A stretch of 64,000 nucleotides of DNA from assembly GCA_964535955.1 (NCBI GenBank), contig CAZHVK010000004.1:6222-70221 (forward strand). Direction: 5' to 3'. The position numbers were made by a program, and so were the translations under genes. The notes below the pieces were generated by a model. The model saw only the letters and a program-made list of their open reading frames with translations, did not search any database and was not told the DNA's origin. Positions 3,383-56,707 of this stretch are shown here, piece by piece. Origin of the DNA: an uncultured Methanosarcinales archaeon (GTDB taxonomy: Archaea > Nanobdellota > Nanobdellia > Woesearchaeales > CAXGTL01). Within the stretch, counting starts at the first letter, position 1. The number at the start of each line of letters is the position of its first letter.

Positions 3383-3521
3383 ATATCCACCCCCAAACTA
3401 TACTAATTAGTAATACAAACATTTAAATATATATACTTTCTCCATATAGTATATATGCATTATATTGTTACTGAGGAGTATATGTCATTTTTATTTATAA
3501 ATATTTGTAAAATCTTGGTTG

Positions 3522-3627
3522 GTGCAACCCGCCAATTTGGCAAGTGAACCAATATTAAATTCGTAAGAAGATAGTAGGTGCCTCAATAATGTTCGCATCA
3601 AATGAGGCAGGTGAACGAGGGTTGCAC
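3522..3627 (+). ncRNA. GC-rich structured element, divergent member of the repeated multi-hairpin family (see 10296, 18925, 49714)
   Basis: 9-bp closing helix gtgcaaccc/gggttgcac enclosing hairpins gcc-aattt-ggc and tgcctca[17 nt]tgaggca, followed by ggtgaacga. GC about 50% against a roughly 30% background. Ends 30 nt before the ATG at 3657. Confidence 0.35.
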
Positions 3628-3656
3628 TAACGCAGTAAAATCTGGGGGGATTGAAT

Positions 3657-4769: not shown

Positions 4770-6875
4770 ATGCAACAAGTTAAACAATTTCAATATTCAG
4801 AAGGGCTTGAAGGAATCATTCAAGGTAGTGGATTAAATGATACCATGTCTATTAATTATTATTTATCTCTTTTATTTAAAGGTATTATTAGATTACCATC
4901 AGATACAATAGATACTGTAGAATTTGTAGATACAACTTCTGGTGTTTCTTATGAAACATATATTACTTCTGGCGGACCTGTTAAACAGATTACAGTAAAT
5001 GTTGATGGTGTTCCTTATTTTAGTATTAAGATGTATGTGGTTGATTATGAGACAGTTCATACTACAGATAAAAATTTAGAACACAAAATTAACAAGACTC
5101 TTGGTGATATTGTTAAAGGTAATTCACATCAACAAATGAAAGACTTAGCATCTTCATTTAGAGCAACAACAGAAAATATTGAAAATGAACTTGATTTAGC
5201 TTATAGAGAAACAGCAACTTATCTAAATAGTAATGATGAAGATGTAATTCCTCTTTTAGGTTATGAACTTAATAGAAGAGCAAAAATATATGACACAAAT
5301 AATGGCTCATATGAATCAAAAACTGCATTTTTTGAAATCTTTCCTTATATCTATAAAACAGATTATAAATTAGATTCTATAATGGTTTTCTATGATGAGA
5401 CTATTAAAGAGATAAGTGAAAGAATAAAAACATATGAGCAAGAATATCTTCAAAAGAACGATCAAATAATAAAATTAGTTTTAGATTTTATTAAAGATAA
5501 TGAAGGAATATATGATCATCCAGATTGGATAGCCTTTTCAGATAAAGTACGTAAACAAAAAGGTTTTGATTTTTTAAGTGATGGAGAAATTGGTCTTATT
5601 GCAGAGTTTGTAAAAAAGATATATAGGTTTGAGAATGAAGAATTTGATGAACTTTTAAGAACTAATAATTTTGAAAGATTAAAAAATACAGATAAAGAAA
5701 AAGATTATCATGTAAACCCAATCTCTTTCAAATATGAGGAATATAAAGATAAATTATTAATAGCAAAAAAAAAGAGAAAAGATATTATTGATACAATTCC
5801 TAAACGTGTTGCATCTTTCCAAAAAAAATGGACAGATAATAAAAATAAGATAGAAGATGATCTTAACAATTTCAAAAAAGAATCAATACATATTCTTTCC
5901 AGGTTGATTACATTAAGTAATGATGAAGAAAACGAATTATATGAAGAAAATAAATTATCTTTGACTAATTTTAAAAAACGTAACGCGACTCATGTTGGAA
6001 GGATTTGTAGATATGTTAAATATATTGTTGGTTGGATGATAAAAGACCAATTTTGGGATAATCTTCATAGTTCATATAAATCCCCTCAAGTTAACAATTT
6101 CACACTTTCTAAAAATTTAAGAAAAAAGTTATTACATACAGATAATTTAGTAAAAAGTGTTAAGAAAACTTTGATGGATAGAAAAAATACTGTTGTATCT
6201 CATGAAGATCTAAGACCGCACCATATCTTTGTTCAAACCCAGGCAAAACAATATCAACAGGAACTTACTAAAAAAATTACTGTTTTTGACTTAAATAGTG
6301 TTGAAGAACAAAGAATTGGTCGTGATATTGTTGAAATATTAACAAGCACTTTTATTGATTTAAGTTATAATAAGACAGATGAGCAACTGGAAAAATATTT
6401 AAAAAGATTCTATCTAGGTAAAAAAAGTGACTTATTGACAGAAGATGTAAAGAATAAATATATGAGATCATTTTATTGGTTAAGATTTGTTTCAAGACTT
6501 GGAAAAGCAGGAATTACAGCAAACACAAGAATGAAAAATGTAAAAAATATTTACAGACCAGAAGTTATTAGGGATCCTGATTTAGGTGCTGATTATGATA
6601 GACTTGTTGATATCAATCCTTATCATGACCCAGATTATTTTATAAATTATCAGCTTACTAAATTAGAAGAAGATATTGAAACTGTACTAAATTCTTCAAC
6701 AAGGCCTTCTTATTTCAAAGGAAGATATGGTGATATCTCTGCAATAAGAGAATTTAAAAATATACTCTCTAATATCCGTTTTAAATATAAAGGACATAAC
6801 AATGCTCTTAATTTTTTTAAAAGAAAAGAATCAAAAAAATCTTCTCTTGCAAGTTTAATTAAATATAATTTATAA
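4770..6875 (+). CDS. Large hypothetical protein (701 aa)
   Basis: Long intact ORF, no motif recognised; 2-nt gap to the downstream PHP gene suggests an operon. Confidence 0.55.
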   Translation: MQQVKQFQYSEGLEGIIQGSGLNDTMSINYYLSLLFKGIIRLPSDTIDTVEFVDTTSGVSYETYITSGGPVKQITVNVDGVPYFSIKMYVVDYETVHTTDKNLEHKINKTLGDIVKGNSHQQMKDLASSFRATTENIENELDLAYRETATYLNSNDEDVIPLLGYELNRRAKIYDTNNGSYESKTAFFEIFPYIYKTDYKLDSIMVFYDETIKEISERIKTYEQEYLQKNDQIIKLVLDFIKDNEGIYDHPDWIAFSDKVRKQKGFDFLSDGEIGLIAEFVKKIYRFENEEFDELLRTNNFERLKNTDKEKDYHVNPISFKYEEYKDKLLIAKKKRKDIIDTIPKRVASFQKKWTDNKNKIEDDLNNFKKESIHILSRLITLSNDEENELYEENKLSLTNFKKRNATHVGRICRYVKYIVGWMIKDQFWDNLHSSYKSPQVNNFTLSKNLRKKLLHTDNLVKSVKKTLMDRKNTVVSHEDLRPHHIFVQTQAKQYQQELTKKITVFDLNSVEEQRIGRDIVEILTSTFIDLSYNKTDEQLEKYLKRFYLGKKSDLLTEDVKNKYMRSFYWLRFVSRLGKAGITANTRMKNVKNIYRPEVIRDPDLGADYDRLVDINPYHDPDYFINYQLTKLEEDIETVLNSSTRPSYFKGRYGDISAIREFKNILSNIRFKYKGHNNALNFFKRKESKKSSLASLIKYNL

Positions 6876-10228: not shown

Positions 10229-10295
10229 TACAACACCTTTTTTTATGATATTAAGAACAAAGAACCCTTTATATATAAATATTGCTACGGGAAGT

Positions 10296-10457
10296 ATGTG
10301 CATGGCGTCCGTCATAAATGCAGAGCATTTATGATCGTGCTCAGAAATGTTCCATTTCTGACATGTAAGACAAGTGAGCACCCCTCTGATTGTCAAAGGA
10401 TCAGGACTTTCCATACAAAACTATTGCACTTGGAAAGTGCGAACGAGCCATGCACAT
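10296..10457 (+). ncRNA. Structured repeat element copy 1 (162 nt): closing helix plus three hairpins; candidate novel ncRNA or structured MITE
   Basis: atgtgcatgg...ccatgcacat closing helix; hairpins tcataaatgc/gcatttatga, gtgctca[cagaaatg-ttc-catttctg]acatgtaagacaagtgagcac, ctttcca/tggaaag, then tgcgaacga. Near-identical architecture at 18925..19087. Confidence 0.5.
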
Positions 10458-10646
10458 GCTCTAACTCTCTAGAAAACACCTTAAAAACTCTCAAAATATA
10501 CTACCAATAAAGAGTAACATTTATAAAGGATAACCCATTCCCTACATAGTATAGCAAAAGAGGTTCTATGATATTAACATAATATATTTGAACATAATAT
10601 ATTAACACAATCAATAATCAATATAAACAGTGCGGGGTGCAATATA

Positions 10647-18903: not shown

Positions 18904-18924
18904 TTTTTCTTATTTTTATTTAAT

Positions 18925-19087
18925 ATGTGCATGGTGTCCTTCATAAATCGGAGATTTATGATCGTGCTCAGAAATGCTCTGCATTTCTGACATGTAAGAC
19001 CAGTGAGCACATCTCAGATTGTACAACGATCAGGGCTTTCCAAACAAGATAACTAATACATGGAAAGTGCGAACGAACCATGCACAT
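18925..19087 (+). ncRNA. Structured repeat element copy 2 (163 nt), 48 nt upstream of argS on the same strand
   Basis: Same closing helix atgtgcatgg/ccatgcacat and hairpins as copy 1. Loops differ, and one stem carries a compensatory swap (tcataaatc/gatttatga vs tcataaatgc/gcatttatga). Confidence 0.5.
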
Positions 19088-19135
19088 ACCTTTTTTAATA
19101 ACTTTTATAAACACCCAACACTTAACTATCTAAAT

Positions 19136-23221: not shown

Positions 23222-24412
23222 TTATTCAGTATAATGGTCTGTTTTTACTTTTTTACCATCTATATATATATTATTGATTACTTTGAGTCTATTTTGTTTA
23301 TTGCCTTTTTTACCTGGTTTTCCATTACCTTTGACTGGTTTGTCATCATCATCTCTTTCATAATCAGCAATATCTTCAATTGTTTTCCTTACTCCTTGTC
23401 TTGAATCACCAATCTTATCTATTTGGTCATTGTGAAAATCTAATGCACCATCTACTGATCTAAAGTATTTCTTAACTTTTCTTTCAACTTTTTTACCTTC
23501 TCTTGCTACATAAGCATGATCTTTGCTAGTTTCTTTATAACAACTGGTTGCATAACATGAAAGTCCTACTAATAATGCTAATGCTAGTAATCCTGTTCCT
23601 ATTTTTGCTGTTTTATACAAACAAGGATATTGATTTTTGATGTATGCAAAGAGTCCTTTGTTATCTTTATCTTTTTTATCATCATCATTAGGTCTATATG
23701 GTCCAATTGGTCCTGGTAGTCCTTGTTCTCCTTGAATTCCTTGTGGCCCTTGTATTCCTTTTTCTCCAGGCTCTCCGTCCTTACCATCTACTCCAGACTT
23801 ACCATCTACTCCTGGCTTTCCATCTACCCCATGCTTTCCATCTACTCCTTGTTTTCCATCTACCCCTGGCTTTCCATCTTCTCCATCTTTTCCATCTACT
23901 CCATGCTTTCCATCTATTCCAGGTTCCCCTTTTTCTCCAGGTACCCCAGGATTTCCATCTACTCCTGGCTTTCCATCTATTCCAGGCTCTCCATCTTTTC
24001 CATCTGCCCCAGACTTTCCATCTATTCCAGGCTCTCCGTCCTTTCCATCTACTCCAGGTTTTCCATCTTTTCCTTTTTTACCTCTTGGTCCTGTTTTTCC
24101 AGGCTCCCCTTGTTCTCCTTGTGCTCCTGGATCTCCTTTAATACCAATTCTATTAATACCATCTTTATACAAACAAACAACAATTGATCCTAATGAATCA
24201 CGAAGTAATTTTCTATCTTGTAATTTTTTTTCTTTAATAACTTCATTAGCAAAATATTCAGGAACATGTGCTCTTTGAAAGATATCTACTTCATCTTGAG
24301 TAAATAAACCACTATACTTTGGTTGTTTTGTTTGTTTTTTAGAATCATCAATCCATTTATCTACTTTATCATCTAATGCTATTTTAAAATATTCTATTGT
24401 ATCTTCAGTCAT
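23222..24412 (-). CDS. Collagen-like triple-helix repeat membrane protein
   Basis: 50 uninterrupted Gly-X-Y triplets (GIKGDPGAQGEQGEPGKTGPRGKKGKDGKPGVDG...GLPGPIGPY), then a TM helix (LLALALLVGL) and a C-terminal SCYATSCYKETSKDH...DSRQGVRKTIEDIADYER module. Confidence 0.65.
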   Translation of the reverse strand: MTEDTIEYFKIALDDKVDKWIDDSKKQTKQPKYSGLFTQDEVDIFQRAHVPEYFANEVIKEKKLQDRKLLRDSLGSIVVCLYKDGINRIGIKGDPGAQGEQGEPGKTGPRGKKGKDGKPGVDGKDGEPGIDGKSGADGKDGEPGIDGKPGVDGNPGVPGEKGEPGIDGKHGVDGKDGEDGKPGVDGKQGVDGKHGVDGKPGVDGKSGVDGKDGEPGEKGIQGPQGIQGEQGLPGPIGPYRPNDDDKKDKDNKGLFAYIKNQYPCLYKTAKIGTGLLALALLVGLSCYATSCYKETSKDHAYVAREGKKVERKVKKYFRSVDGALDFHNDQIDKIGDSRQGVRKTIEDIADYERDDDDKPVKGNGKPGKKGNKQNRLKVINNIYIDGKKVKTDHYTE

Positions 24413-48256: not shown

Positions 48257-49663
48257 TCAAACAACCTTTCTCTTCTCAATATAGAAAATAGATAGATAAA
48301 CAGGCACAACTACTAAAACCAAAACAATTGCCATTACAGCAAACAACACCTGCAATGACATCAAACCCATAAAACTACCAAACTCAGCAACCAATGCACC
48401 TAATGGAACAAACACAACATAAGCCAAAACCATTAACAAAGTATAGCCTTGGAAATACCAATGACGCAATTCTGGTTCAATATTATTACTAAGTAATAAA
48501 CCAGTTGTTAAACCTATCATTGATCCACCTATAACAGAACAAACAATTGCCATTGAGATGTTGATTATTCCTGGTTTTAACCACATTGTCAAAGGAAGAA
48601 TAGCAATCAACATTGTACCAAACACAAGCGCAGGTATATTACCATATTGTTTAGATAATGCTTTTGCCATGTAGGTGGAAAAAAGAGAAGTGATTATAGG
48701 AACAGAAAACATTATAGCAACATTTAAAAAACCATTAAATGCTATATTTGTAAAGTATTGATAAATAAAAACACCATAATAGGTTATACCAATTGTTTGA
48801 ATAACACCAGTTATGGCTGTACCAATAGCAAGCATCATAACAACTTTATTCTTAAAAATTTGTCCTGACATTTTTCTTATAGATCTGAGTCTTTGTTTTA
48901 TCAATATAAATATTGATGTTGTTTCAATTTGCATCTTTGTTTCCATCAAATTTAATAAAATAAATACAGATATTAACAAACACAATCCAGCTGCACCAAA
49001 CACAATCAACACAATAATATTATTAGCATAATTAAATGCATTATACTTATTTAAGAAAAATCCGCTTAAGACCAGTCCAATCACAACAAAGAACAAACTA
49101 TATCCTCCAATCTTTGTCAATAATAAACTATCTGTTTTTTCTTCTGATTTTTTTCCAAAAGCAATGCTATAAATTTCGCCAATCAAAACATTGCCTAATG
49201 CTAATAATAATACACAAATGATTATAAGCCAGCTTAACTCATAAAATAAACCAACACCTATCAAACCAAGACAAAGTGCCATCATAATTCCTGTTATAAG
49301 AATCATTGTTTTACTAATCTTTTTTTTTTTAAACAAATCTTGTAAAAACATTGAAAACAACAAACTTAATATAACAGACAGTCCAACAGTAACACCTAAT
49401 ATAAAATACGAACTAGTCAATAAAAACAAAAATATATAGATAAATTGATCATTCCCAAACCCAGATGATAGTTTAAAAAACAATTCCCTTGTAAAAAACT
49501 TTTCAACAATATAAGACTTAGTGCTTATTCCAGTTTGTTTTTTAATAATCTTATCTACATCAGACTCAAGAAATCCTTTAGACAAAACCTCATATTTAAT
49601 TACTTCTGGTTTTGCTTTTTCAGATAACCTCTTTTTTATATACTCTTTAATATCTTCTGGCAT
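48257..49663 (-). CDS. Polytopic membrane transporter (MFS-like, about 12 TM) with cytoplasmic N-terminal extension
   Basis: Hydrophobicity pattern; no specific signature recognised. Confidence 0.55.
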   Translation of the reverse strand: MPEDIKEYIKKRLSEKAKPEVIKYEVLSKGFLESDVDKIIKKQTGISTKSYIVEKFFTRELFFKLSSGFGNDQFIYIFLFLLTSSYFILGVTVGLSVILSLLFSMFLQDLFKKKKISKTMILITGIMMALCLGLIGVGLFYELSWLIIICVLLLALGNVLIGEIYSIAFGKKSEEKTDSLLLTKIGGYSLFFVVIGLVLSGFFLNKYNAFNYANNIIVLIVFGAAGLCLLISVFILLNLMETKMQIETTSIFILIKQRLRSIRKMSGQIFKNKVVMMLAIGTAITGVIQTIGITYYGVFIYQYFTNIAFNGFLNVAIMFSVPIITSLFSTYMAKALSKQYGNIPALVFGTMLIAILPLTMWLKPGIINISMAIVCSVIGGSMIGLTTGLLLSNNIEPELRHWYFQGYTLLMVLAYVVFVPLGALVAEFGSFMGLMSLQVLFAVMAIVLVLVVVPVYLSIFYIEKRKVV

Positions 49664-49713
49664 ATGTTTATTTAATATTATTAGTATATATAAATGTTAC
49701 TATGGTGTGTAGT

Positions 49714-49823
49714 ATGTGTATGGTGTCTGTAAGACTAGTGAGTACCCACATAAATCGTAAGACTACTTGGGCTTTCAATACAATCAGAATAATACATTGA
49801 AAGTACGAACGAACCATACACAT
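49714..49823 (+). ncRNA. Structured repeat element copy 3 (110 nt, 5'-truncated variant)
   Basis: Closing helix atgtgtatgg/ccatacacat (two C-G to T-A compensatory pairs relative to copies 1 and 2); retains gtaagactagtgag, hairpin ctttcaat/attgaaag and gtacgaacgaacc. Confidence 0.4.
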
Positions 49824-49933
49824 ACTGTGTATACATATAATAAATACATGTAGAAACATTTAAATAAAACCTAAAGCCTAAACAAACAATAACAATATAA
49901 AATCATTATAAAACCAACAAAAGGTGATAAACT

Positions 49934-50482
49934 ATGTCAAATCAAGAAACATGTATATATTCAATATTAGCAATTATCTTTGCATTTGTATTATCCCCTC
50001 TAGGATTAGTATTTGGAATAATGGCTTTGGTTAAGATTCATAAAGATCCCAATTTAAAGGGAAAAGTGTTAGCAATCATTGCATTATTTATTGCTGTATG
50101 GGGTTGTTTTGTATGGTTTAGTTTGTTAGGTTCTTTGCTTTATTACGGAGTTCTGGACACAGATGTCTTTATACCTGAAAAATGTATTCTTGGGCCTGCT
50201 GGTAATATTGAATGCACTGAACCAGATTTAACTTCAGACGGAAGTTTATTGATCACATTAAAAAACACAGGTGGAATAGACTTAGAATCAGCAACACTAA
50301 GTATAGATGGTAAAGATTGTTCACCAAAAGACTTTGATTTTAAACACAATGAAGAACAGACATTTAACTGCCATGTTGAACCAGGAGAAACAGATCAAAT
50401 GGGTAAATTCAGCATGTCATTATTGTATGGAAAAGGAATAAAGAAATCAATGAGAGGCGATTTGGTAGCAACTTATAATTGA
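49934..50482 (+). CDS. Membrane protein (2 TM) with C-terminal extracellular domain, hypothetical
   Basis: Two hydrophobic helices then a Cys-containing soluble domain. Confidence 0.5.
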   Translation: MSNQETCIYSILAIIFAFVLSPLGLVFGIMALVKIHKDPNLKGKVLAIIALFIAVWGCFVWFSLLGSLLYYGVLDTDVFIPEKCILGPAGNIECTEPDLTSDGSLLITLKNTGGIDLESATLSIDGKDCSPKDFDFKHNEEQTFNCHVEPGETDQMGKFSMSLLYGKGIKKSMRGDLVATYN

Positions 50483-50527: not shown

Positions 50528-53782
<3,255 letters not shown>

Positions 53783-54481: not shown

Positions 54482-56707
54482 TTGAACACAGAATCTATTG
54501 AAATACAAAATAAGAGCAAAGCATTACGAGAATCTCATGGCTTAGAATGGCTTGCTTTTAATCTATCAAAAGAACAACCTGATATAGAACAAAGACTTTC
54601 TCATTTAGACAATGATCCTGAAATAGACATAATAGAAGCATTGGTTGACAGTGGTTATGAACCAATTCTTGAGCCATTTCCAGGAAGCGGAAAGATGAAG
54701 GATTGTTATTTTGTATATCAGGATAAGAATAAAAAGCACAAAAGAGTTGCTGTTATTGATAAACCATTAAAAGATCTTTCTGAAAAATCAAGAAAAAACA
54801 AACAAAAAGGAAATGATGTTGAAAACGAAGGAAATATCTTAAGAAATATTTCAGATCGTAAAGAACATTATATAATTGATTATTATCACAAGATAAAACT
54901 TTCAGATGGCCGTTATATGCATATTATTGAATATTTTCCAGGAGAGCCACTGTTTGATTATGTGAAGAAAAATGGTCCTTTTTCAGCAAAAGGATTTGAA
55001 CAAGTTGCAGACAAACTATTAGTAGCTATAAGTCATGTTTATAATGATGGATATCTGCATAGAGACACTCACACAGGAAATATATTAGTTAGAGAAGATA
55101 AAGATGGATTTGATGCAAGATTAATAGATTTTGGAAATGCATCTGACAAAGAATCTTTAGAACAAAGGCTTTGTAATTCAACAGCAATGTCTTCAATAAT
55201 AGCAATGCCTATTGTTGATCCTTTTACAATCAGTGGTTTAACATCAGAACCAATCAAATATTCTGTTGCATCTGAGCTTTATGCACTAGGTACTGGATTA
55301 TACTATGCTTTAACAGGCAAAGATATTTTTTATTTTAATAAACAAACAGGAGAAGCAAGAGTAAGAAAAACAGATAAAAACTTATTAGATGAAAATGGAT
55401 TGCTTGATATTGAACTTTATGAACAAGAACTTGCTAATGCTTTAGATGATTTACCCAAAGAAGTAAGAAAATATTCAGAAATCTTGTACAAATTATTAAG
55501 TCTAGAAAGCAGGATGGAGAATCCTGAGGAAAATGCTTTTTACAAATCTGTGGATAAGAACAAAGAAAGTATAAACCCTTTTGAAACTCTTATACAGGAA
55601 TATAATGAGATTAAAGATTATGATCCAGATAAATTACAACAAGTATTAGGCAGTGCAATTGATAATACTCATAAATTACAAGATCTTTTAGATCAAAGAA
55701 AACAGATAATCAATAAAGGCAAAGAAAAGAAGTCATTCTTTAGCAGAATCTTAGGTAACAAGTATGCACTTGCAGCAGGAGCAATTGGTTTGATTGGTTT
55801 GCTTGTGTTTGGAAAGGATTATTTAAAGAAAGACAGCCTAGTTTTTGACCACCCGCCTATTGCAGAGGCTTCACAAACAATAACAGAACCAGCAACAGAA
55901 CAGGAAAACAGACCTATAATAGAAGAAAAACAACCAGCACAAGAACAAGAAGAATCAACATTAGAACAAACATTAAATGATCATTATGGTTTACAAGCAA
56001 TGAAACAAAATATTAAAAAACATGCTTATGTTAATACTGGAAAAGGTGATTGGAAATATGTAGATGTTCATAATGGTCTGGATCGTTATCAAGATACAAG
56101 AAATGGCACAATAGTTTTACTTAGTAAGTTTGGTATTGTAGATGATTTTTTCTTTCCAACTGCTGTAAATGAAATAATAACAGATGCTTATATGCATTTG
56201 GATGATCATTCTTGGAGACATGTAGGTAATATACATTTTGAAGAACACGGAAATCTAAACCGTTACCAACATAAGAAAACTGGTAATGTAGTATGTATAA
56301 ATAAACTTGGAATTATAAGAGAATATTTTATTCCAACAGCTGTTGATGAAATAGAATATGATGCTTATATTGATACTAGCAAATCCAGTCATTGGAGATA
56401 TGTAGACAAAATATATTTTGAAGAACATGGCAATTTAGACCGTTATCAAGACAAGGACAATGGTTCTGTAATTTGTATAAATAAACTTGATATTGTAAAA
56501 GAATATTTTATTCCAACAGGTTTTAATGATATAAAATATGATGCTTATATGTGTCTTGACTCTAATGATTGGAAGAATTTGGGTAAGATACAAAGTGAAA
56601 AGCATGGCACTCTAAACCGTTATCAGAATAAAGAAACAGGTACAATAGTCTGTATAAATAGACTTAGCATTTTAAAGGATTTCTTTATACCAACAAGTGT
56701 GAATTAA
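54482..56707 (+). CDS. Hanks-type Ser/Thr protein kinase, TM segment, and four tandem ~58-aa C-terminal repeats
   Basis: Kinase motifs RVAVIDKP (VAIK-like), HRDTHTGNILV (catalytic loop), LIDFGNA (DFG). TM helix ALAAGAIGLIGLLVFG. Repeats contain H-x-G-x-L-x-R-Y-Q and (E/D)(Y/F)F(I/F)PT motifs. TTG start at 54482 with RBS AGGGGTG. Confidence 0.7.
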   Translation: MNTESIEIQNKSKALRESHGLEWLAFNLSKEQPDIEQRLSHLDNDPEIDIIEALVDSGYEPILEPFPGSGKMKDCYFVYQDKNKKHKRVAVIDKPLKDLSEKSRKNKQKGNDVENEGNILRNISDRKEHYIIDYYHKIKLSDGRYMHIIEYFPGEPLFDYVKKNGPFSAKGFEQVADKLLVAISHVYNDGYLHRDTHTGNILVREDKDGFDARLIDFGNASDKESLEQRLCNSTAMSSIIAMPIVDPFTISGLTSEPIKYSVASELYALGTGLYYALTGKDIFYFNKQTGEARVRKTDKNLLDENGLLDIELYEQELANALDDLPKEVRKYSEILYKLLSLESRMENPEENAFYKSVDKNKESINPFETLIQEYNEIKDYDPDKLQQVLGSAIDNTHKLQDLLDQRKQIINKGKEKKSFFSRILGNKYALAAGAIGLIGLLVFGKDYLKKDSLVFDHPPIAEASQTITEPATEQENRPIIEEKQPAQEQEESTLEQTLNDHYGLQAMKQNIKKHAYVNTGKGDWKYVDVHNGLDRYQDTRNGTIVLLSKFGIVDDFFFPTAVNEIITDAYMHLDDHSWRHVGNIHFEEHGNLNRYQHKKTGNVVCINKLGIIREYFIPTAVDEIEYDAYIDTSKSSHWRYVDKIYFEEHGNLDRYQDKDNGSVICINKLDIVKEYFIPTGFNDIKYDAYMCLDSNDWKNLGKIQSEKHGTLNRYQNKETGTIVCINRLSILKDFFIPTSVN

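Follow-up and report, generated by a model that had tools for sequence, protein, structure and literature searches.

A dispersed family of branched, covarying elements in a DPANN archaeon: candidate small RNA genes that spread like miniature transposable elements

A non-coding sequence of somewhat more than 110 nt, located between a transporter gene and a divergently oriented gene that starts at 49934, resembles two longer elements elsewhere in the same 64-kb stretch of archaeal DNA (the whole of which is referred to here as the window), and a sequence-only reading had taken it for a truncated third member of their family. The question that this locus raises is whether it represents the remnant of a repeat or a complete gene for a structured RNA, and what kind of genetic element the family as a whole constitutes. 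As far as we know, DPANN archaea have tiny genomes for which almost no non-coding RNAs beyond the universal ones have been described, and we know of almost no regulatory or catalytic RNAs in these organisms.

The window is part of the core chromosome of an AT-rich (about 30% GC) DPANN archaeon, and encodes MetRS, GluRS, exosome, SBDS, proteasome alpha, an Rpp14 neighbour, ArgRS, RNase HII, prefoldin, FtsY, and GyrB with an intein. The proteins scanned in the 64-kb window included neither a reverse transcriptase nor a transposase, and no transposase was seen in approximately 10 kb of the adjoining contig. On basis of ArgRS, the nearest genomes are Woesearchaeota/Nanoarchaeota MAGs with identities of at most 55%, except for one partial match of 79%, and the DNA of the window recurs in many metagenome assemblies. 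Several GTDB/NCBI records named 'uncultured Methanosarcinales archaeon' (L029, L075, L033-L036, L040, and L044) contain DPANN-type syntenic genes at approximately 30% GC, and the Methanosarcinales label on such records looks wrong.

Several other genes in the window deserve mention in their own right. These include a gene for a protein of 826 aa that combines bacterial-type FliM/FliN C-ring domains with a long, acidic tail of low complexity, encountered here in an archaeal genome (45596-48076, minus strand), the intein-interrupted GyrB of 1083 aa with an Intein_splicing domain on record (50528-53779, minus strand), a collagen-triple-helix-repeat protein (23222-24412, minus strand), and a eukaryote-like Ser/Thr protein kinase (54482-56707, plus strand). 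Moreover, the 701-aa open reading frame at 4770-6875 is represented in some strains by two genes (395 aa plus 304 or 279 aa) with the same neighbours.

Members and architecture of the element family

Three-way alignment and covariance models placed 49711-49826 on the plus strand (copy 3) in one family with the elements at 10293-10460 (copy 1) and 18922-19090 (copy 2), both also on the plus strand, as had been proposed, and the similarity of copy 3 to this family is far beyond chance. The closing helix that had been noticed, ATGTGTATGG at 49714-49723 and CCATACACAT at 49814-49823 versus ATGTGCATGG/CCATGCACAT in copies 1 and 2, is present as described and reaches 3-4 bp further out than initially delimited, giving an element of 116 nt. 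The paired differences of copy 3 align in homologous columns, and this positional homology was what the proposal of compensatory change depended on: a C-G pair of the closing helix is replaced by U-A, and a C-G pair of the 3' hairpin by A-U, with one additional U-A pair in the latter helix. A third compensation, GAGCAC/GTGC to GAGTAC/GTAC (C-G to U-A), had been taken for motif variation. Both core motifs are indeed retained in copy 3, GTAAGACTAGTGAG at 49729-49742 and ACGAACGAACCATACACAT at 49805-49823, and these long motifs are confined to three sites in the window (10365/10439, 18994/19069, and 49729/49805), with 0.72 and 0.01 matches expected in whole-window shuffles for the GTAAGACTAGTGAG and ACGAACGAACCATACACAT patterns, respectively.

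Additional members were detected with two covariance models, one of the core (R1) and a second that was built from copies 3 and 4 (R2). With default filters R1 retrieved copies 1-3 only and had zero matches in 19 related ArgRS loci; with filters off, it detected copy 4 at 3517-3632 (plus strand, 40.7 bits, E 1.6e-8, GC 0.45). R2 detected copy 5 on the same contig, approximately 9.3 kb upstream of the window start (L080 735-847, 83 bits), as well as members in two other species, L082 551-668 (75 bits) and L083 3229-3342 (68 bits). Filter-off searches of approximately 226 kb of DNA from relatives, taken around the homologues of ArgRS and PhoU, yielded none, and copies were found at the two MFS loci only. 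A match of R2 at L079 9-74 was discarded, being a 30-bp perfect palindrome at a contig end and not a family member; this inverted repeat (L079 1-80), located at the contig's very end and matched weakly by the model on two strands, is probably an assembly artefact. Copy 3 scored 121.8 bits (E 2.5e-29) with R1 and 123 bits with R2, both of which contain copy 3 itself. The scores of 40.7 to 83 bits for the further copies outside the models' building sets are more telling, since these copies were found by models not built from them.

The minimum free energy fold of copy 3 shares the closing helix, and its folding-energy z-score versus shuffles is -3.9 (-7.2 and -6.2 for copies 1 and 2). Its GC content is 0.36 versus 0.28 in the surrounding 2 kb, and the elements range from 0.34 to 0.47 versus 0.28-0.31 for the genome. 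The sequence of copy 3 is identical across the 10 contigs of a strain comparison, and the strains added no covariation.

In total, five copies are known in this genome, four in the window and copy 5 outside it, and at least three related DPANN archaea carry the family, which as far as sampled appears restricted to one Woesearchaeota-like DPANN lineage. Two sequence clades can be distinguished: clade A comprises copies 1, 2, 3, and 5 and the L083 member (73-83% identical), clade B comprises copy 4 and the L082 member (74% identical), and identity between the clades is 57-63%. Relative to copies 1 and 2, copy 3 lacks the two 5' hairpins (P2 and P3), as had been observed: a 56-nt block is gone while the rest is colinear, and the three copies align without large gaps once this block is taken out of copies 1 and 2. 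The designation 'truncated' does not hold, since five of the seven known members (copies 3, 4, and 5, L082, and L083) have the short form of 109-118 nt and both clades are represented among them, which makes the short form the basic architecture, with copy 3 as a complete example. The extra hairpins occur in copies 1 and 2 alone, and this 56-nt pair is a derived insertion inside the hairpin P1b. The hairpins themselves (10311-10365 and 18940-18994; UCAUAAAUG.../UCAGAAAUG...) are alike, differing by a paired U-A to G-C change, and look like a tandem duplication of one hairpin.

The common fold and its covariation

A hand-made structural alignment of the seven members, checked against real coordinates, indicates that they share one predicted fold, a three-way junction of P1, P1b, and P4, with P4 branching into P4a and P5. 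The closing helix P1 measures 11-14 bp; in copy 3 its 5' strand AGUAUGUGUAUGGU (49711-49724) pairs with ACCAUACACAUACU (49813-49826), all 14 pairs covary across the seven members, and the helix is also obtained independently by RNAalifold. P1b directly abuts P1 and consists of 4 bp with a loop of 3-4 nt; in copy 3 it reads GUCU-GUA-AGAC (49725-49735), with covariation in pairs 2 and 4 (U-A to C-G and U-A to A-U), and it is the point at which P2 and P3 are inserted in copies 1 and 2. Junction J1 (N-A in the family, UA at 49736-49737 in copy 3), of which the second base A is invariant in 7/7, leads into P4. This helix has the order G-C, N-N, G.A, A.G, and then three Watson-Crick pairs, formed in copy 3 by GUGAGUA (49738-49744) and UACGAAC (49804-49810); the tandem G.A/A.G is invariant in 7/7, and five of the seven positions are canonical, four of those covarying. 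The P4a region (49745-49771), which includes a UC-GUAA-GA mini-hairpin that copy 3 has in common with copy 4 and L082, is less regular and is the least well defined part. P5 is a hairpin of 7-8 bp with a loop of 15-18 nt, in copy 3 CUUUCAAU/AUUGAAAG around a 16-nt loop (49772-49803), and 6/8 of its pairs covary across members. The P4 3' strand is followed by an invariant GA linker (together 49804-49812) that connects back to P1.

The initial proposal of a minimal core of roughly 110 nt is sustained as to size (approximately 110-116 nt suffices), and needs revision as to content: the closing helix encloses three stem-loops instead of one, and what had been read as conserved single strands is mostly paired, with GTC...GAC forming a 4-bp hairpin and GTGAG(Y)A/T(R)CGAAC the tandem-G.A helix. 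Moreover, GTAAGAC is no family-wide motif, being absent from copy 4 and L082.

Changes on both sides with pairing kept were found for 26/33 pairs of the hand-made alignment (9.7 +/- 2.1 in partner shuffles), and 203/221 cells are canonical versus 157 +/- 3.9 in the shuffles, with 0/2000 shuffles reaching either observed value; these figures derive from seven related sequences with limited statistical power, in an alignment partly fitted to the structure. Conserved G.A/A.G accounts for 14 of the 18 non-canonical cells. In model-fitted alignments, 16-17 of the 34 pairs are altered on both sides, versus at most 2 when partners are slid, and between copies 4 and 3 alone both sides have changed in 16/34 pairs. 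RNAalifold by itself predicts matching helices. P1 of L082 (UUGGUUCAAUCCUU) has almost no sequence in common with clade A, but its 14 pairs are all retained, which argues that P1 is a real helix, beyond a mere conserved repeat. Overall, the pattern indicates that selection acts on pairing rather than on sequence. The plus strand is taken to be the RNA strand because four G.U cells are tolerated and because the minus strand scores 10-21 bits only, versus 123-124 bits for the plus strand. An antisense target test of the variable P5 loop in 74 kb gave results no better than shuffles.

Insertion sites and the locus beside the transporter gene

Comparison with related genomes revealed that some copies reside at sites that are vacant elsewhere. 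L029 and L044 both lack copy 2, and deletion of 175 nt (18925-19099) restores colinearity with L029 and retains a single TTTAAT; the copy is flanked by the 6-bp target duplication TTTAAT (18919-18924 and 19094-19099), and the corresponding L029 site reads TATAAT. Copy 4, the divergent short form of clade B, is located 24 nt ahead of the start codon (ATG) of an AbrB/PhoU-like gene, in a spacer that is conserved in L075 and L073, where the copy is absent. The window contains 136 extra nt exactly between the TATA box and GGGGGG-ATG at this position, and deleting 3507-3642 leaves a gap-free match to L075. A 9-bp direct repeat, GTAAAATCT, flanks copy 4 (3507-3515 and 3635-3643; chance about 1.8% per site), and both repeats fall inside the 136 nt absent from L075. 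Flanking repeats are short or low-complexity at copies 3 and 5 (imperfect GTGTGT/GTGTAT at copy 3), and copy 1 has none; a target duplication appears convincing for copy 2 only. Judged from this synteny, copies 2 and 4 arose by insertion of DNA into AT-rich intergenic regions near promoters.

The P1 strands (11-14 bp) constitute inverted-repeat ends, and on the left side of copy 2 they lie at the exact end of the inserted DNA. The elements are 109-169 nt and non-coding, the sole internal reading frame displaying mostly non-synonymous changes between copies 3 and 5. In view of the short target duplication of copy 2, the family disperses like a miniature transposable element of which the P1 strands are the terminal inverted repeats. 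Each of the five copies in this genome has the orientation of the gene that follows it and lies 24-190 nt from the start of that gene, and copy 5 is separated by 6 nt from the stop codon of the preceding gene and by 48 nt from the start of the following one; this co-orientation would fit a cis-acting leader and selection on insertion orientation equally.

Two further observations concern the surroundings of copy 4. A strain polymorphism at 3530 (C to A, 3/6 contigs) breaks the innermost P1 pair (C-G to A.G). Upstream of the PhoU-like gene, a partly palindromic intergenic block, CATTTAAATATATATACYTTYTCCATATAGTATATAT, is strongly conserved in three distant genomes (3420-3505 in the window, L075 9895-9985, and L073 9885-9960), and it is probably a promoter or operator.

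The sequence-only reading had placed copy 3 upstream of the plus-strand gene at 49934, and that start codon is indeed 111 nt downstream, but the 5' side is the more informative. The divergent neighbour on this side encodes an MFS transporter (48257-49663, minus strand; Pfam MFS_1), with 47 nt between its ATG and copy 3. In sequence reading, a TATA-like box, TATATATAAAT (49686-49696), was recognised in the spacer that separates copy 3 from the MFS start codon (49663, minus strand), and it is possible that this is a shared or bidirectional promoter. MFS homologues in the two other species, one 66% and one 61% identical to that of the window and 64% identical to each other, carry the element 51 and 44 nt upstream, respectively, on the opposite strand. 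The motif GTATATATA(T)AAA is conserved at the equivalent place in L082 and L083, and their spacer between the MFS start and the element contains GTATATATATAAAGG. In these two species, the other neighbour of the element is convergent and is not the gene found there in the window, and T-rich sequence follows the element. Because that neighbour is convergent, the element cannot be a 5' leader there and must be a separate transcription unit. The conserved MFS arrangement in three species therefore identifies copy 3 as an old syntenic locus and not a recent decayed insertion.

The history of this locus is nevertheless not simple, since the element beside the MFS gene of L082 is a clade B member and those of L083 and this genome fall in clade A, a mismatch that plain vertical inheritance leaves unexplained; the element may have been replaced, altered by gene conversion, or inserted repeatedly at this one site. 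Separately, the 26 nt just upstream of the element are identical in L082 and L083 despite the clade difference. No homologues of the DUF4190 neighbour of copy 3 were close enough to provide an empty copy 3 site. A T-rich run follows the element in copy 2, L082, and L083 only, and is absent after copy 3; a T-run terminator is missing in four of the five copies of this genome. The start site predicted from the nearest TATA-like box falls a few bases inside P1, and TATA-like boxes are common in intergenic DNA of 30% GC.

Relation to known elements and candidate explanations

Rfam 15 gave zero matches on the window at gathering score, and relaxed searches gave no relevant match either (E<=10 around copies 2 and 3, E<=5 for the whole window, E<=5 for L082 and L083). 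The family has no counterpart in Rfam nor, to the extent that the literature could be searched, in published work. Pattern searches retrieved no further members: a strict pattern had zero matches in public genome contigs, a looser pattern matched 19 loci in metagenome contigs, none of them a family member and the best-looking being soil group II introns, and the two matches in viral contigs were both unrelated.

Several established classes were compared with the family and did not fit. Similar to the type III hammerhead, which is also often multicopy and linked to mobile DNA, the family combines a closing helix, a hairpin, a conserved purine-rich strand, a helix flanked by tandem G.A/A.G, and a GAA... 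strand back to the closing helix. Unlike the hammerhead, its core reads C-N-A-G-N-G-A ... G-A-R-C-G-A and not C-U-G-A-N-G-A ... G-A-A-A with a UH cleavage site, the essential G5 and A6 are out of place, and no model matches. 5S rRNA, which would require an unbranched helix IV-V arm and a helix II-III arm of approximately 35 nt, does not correspond to a structure with one arm that is a 4-bp hairpin and another that is branched, and RF00001 did not match at E<=10. C/D box sRNAs were dismissed because the core lacks box C (RUGAUGA) and box D (CUGA) and because the tandem G.A is located in a continuous, bulge-free helix, whereas a k-turn needs a 3-nt bulge. For H/ACA sRNAs, which would have a single-stranded ACA 3' of the lower stem and variable pocket strands, ACA is confined to P1 of clade A members and does not occur in copy 4 or L082, and the junction strands are the most conserved rather than the most variable. 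A riboswitch, which would be expected to recur in 5' leaders of genes with related functions and to possess an expression platform, fits poorly in that the downstream genes are unrelated and that L082 and L083 have no co-oriented downstream gene. By-eye checks of k-turn/k-junction registers, the H/ACA pocket, C/D boxes, the hammerhead core, 5S topology, integron attC R-boxes, and the IS200/IS605 target motif did not yield a fit for any of these.

Among mobile elements, eukaryotic SINEs are small-RNA-derived and form dispersed repeats with target duplications of variable length. The family resembles them as a small structured RNA gene doubling as a dispersed repeat, but no reverse transcriptase is present in the 64-kb window, there is no element-specific A-rich tail, and the inverted-repeat ends point to DNA transposition, unlike SINEs. 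An archaeal precedent is the MITE-like C/D box sRNA element of Pyrobaculum calidifontis, with 15 copies that have spread in a transposon-like manner in one genome and that were not detected in sister species (Lui et al. 2018, PMC6009581); that element has C and D boxes and guides, whereas the family described here has neither boxes, nor a k-turn bulge, nor a detectable antisense target.

The closest parallel in mobility is provided by prokaryotic MITEs, exemplified by QMITE2 of Coxiella, Correia, and ERIC, which are non-coding, multicopy elements of less than 500 bp in AT-rich intergenic DNA, with inverted repeats at their termini and short direct repeats on either side, and which can yield stably folding transcripts or reside within the transcripts of neighbouring genes (PMC10969869). 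The observed traits of the family, namely a size of 110-170 bp, absence of coding capacity, terminal inverted repeats of 10-14 bp, several copies in AT-rich intergenic DNA, and insertion polymorphism versus relatives with the 6-bp target duplication of copy 2, are the defining MITE features according to that review. The family could therefore be a purely selfish MITE, i.e., a non-autonomous DNA transposon served by a transposase elsewhere, in which P1 is merely the terminal inverted repeat, the RNA fold is incidental, and no RNA-level function exists. This is considered unlikely. Terminal repeats leave the covarying internal hairpins P1b, P4, and P5 unexplained, an invariant non-Watson-Crick G.A/A.G within a helix has no rationale at the DNA level, and the fold is a branched three-way junction instead of one long palindrome. 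Furthermore, the P1 sequence differs between the clades, although a common transposase would require its conservation, and there is no known parent insertion sequence nor a transposase in the window or seen in the adjoining 10 kb. The GC content exceeds that of the genome (0.30), while MITEs are typically AT-rich, the paralogues are not near-identical (73-83%), and one copy is in place across three species beside MFS genes of which the proteins are 61-66% identical.

A 5' leader module that regulates the co-oriented downstream gene in cis, for instance as a riboswitch aptamer, a self-cleaving ribozyme, or a stability element, would account for the orientation of 5/5 copies in this genome, for the position of copy 4 exactly between the ancestral TATA box and the start codon, for the lack of a T-run terminator in most copies, and for about a dozen invariant junction nucleotides amid variable helices, which is the usual look of aptamers and small ribozymes. 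It is judged somewhat less probable still than the selfish element, since the L082 and L083 elements face the 3' end of a convergent gene and have nothing downstream to control, the genes downstream of the copies have no relation to one another (they include an AbrB/PhoU-like regulator, ArgRS, a DUF4190 membrane protein, and genes of unassigned role), and no conserved expression platform was recognised. In addition, the conserved ArgRS TATA box is found downstream of copy 2, and T6 follows the copy, which places copy 2 outside the ArgRS mRNA. It is very improbable that the family derives from a group II intron, as a fragment or a modified form of the base of domain 2, J2/3, and domain 3 that might act in trans. 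The pattern GTAAGACNAGTGAG...CGAACGA did match soil group II introns exactly at D2/D3, with GUC-NGUAA-GAC ahead of the motif there as well, and in that soil intron lineage a short helix with a GUAA-type loop is likewise followed by a tandem-G.A helix branching into two hairpins. However, 19 loci (about 9 distinct sequences) is approximately the chance level, on a rough estimate, for a 20-base pattern with a 31-position gap, the intron matches all stem from one lineage, and the motif is missing at D2/D3 in 10/10 independent plasmid group II introns. Group II models of Rfam do not match the elements (E<=10), domain 5 is found nowhere in the window, the family has no D1, D5, or D6, and clade B lacks GUAAGAC; the homology was rejected as coincidence.

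The best reading of these data is that the family represents a lineage-specific small RNA gene under RNA-level selection, which also disperses like a miniature transposable element. The argument for an RNA gene is derived from the branched covarying fold, the invariant non-canonical pairs, the GC content above background, and the cross-species locus, and that for mobility from the inverted-repeat ends, the insertion polymorphism, and the target duplication. In its mechanistic form, to which a probability of approximately 0.55 is assigned, this reading holds that the elements specify an independently expressed structured sRNA of which the conserved junction binds a trans-acting partner, and of which secondary copies become leaders of neighbouring genes. 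Copy 3 would be a full-length gene for a structured non-coding RNA of approximately 115 nt on the plus strand, transcribed separately from the TATA-containing spacer that it has in common with the divergent MFS gene. The invariant junction nucleotides (the G-C pair, the tandem G.A, the linker GA, and the junction A), with the tandem G.A/A.G of P4 presumably forming sheared pairs, would serve as a putative binding surface for the partner, most likely a protein. Copies landing between a promoter and a start codon, e.g., copy 4, would then become 5' leaders. A bolder and rather doubtful suggestion is that the invariant three-way-junction core is the putative active site of a new class of small self-cleaving ribozymes or a new ligand-binding aptamer, carried by a mobile element that seeds promoter-proximal sites in DPANN archaea.

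The significance of the family lies in the combination of a well-supported structured RNA without an Rfam match, with compensatory evolution over at least three species and held beside one transporter gene, with its copying into promoter-proximal sites, one of which separates the TATA box of a conserved regulator gene from the start codon. Should the RNA be functional in its own right, it would constitute a new archaeal RNA class, of which natural short and long variants already define the minimal core. If the family is chiefly selfish, it would be a rare example among prokaryotes of a miniature element in which a branched RNA fold is selected for, raising the question of which intermediate or partner reads that fold. 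On either reading, copy 3 provides a concrete construct of 115 nt for testing.
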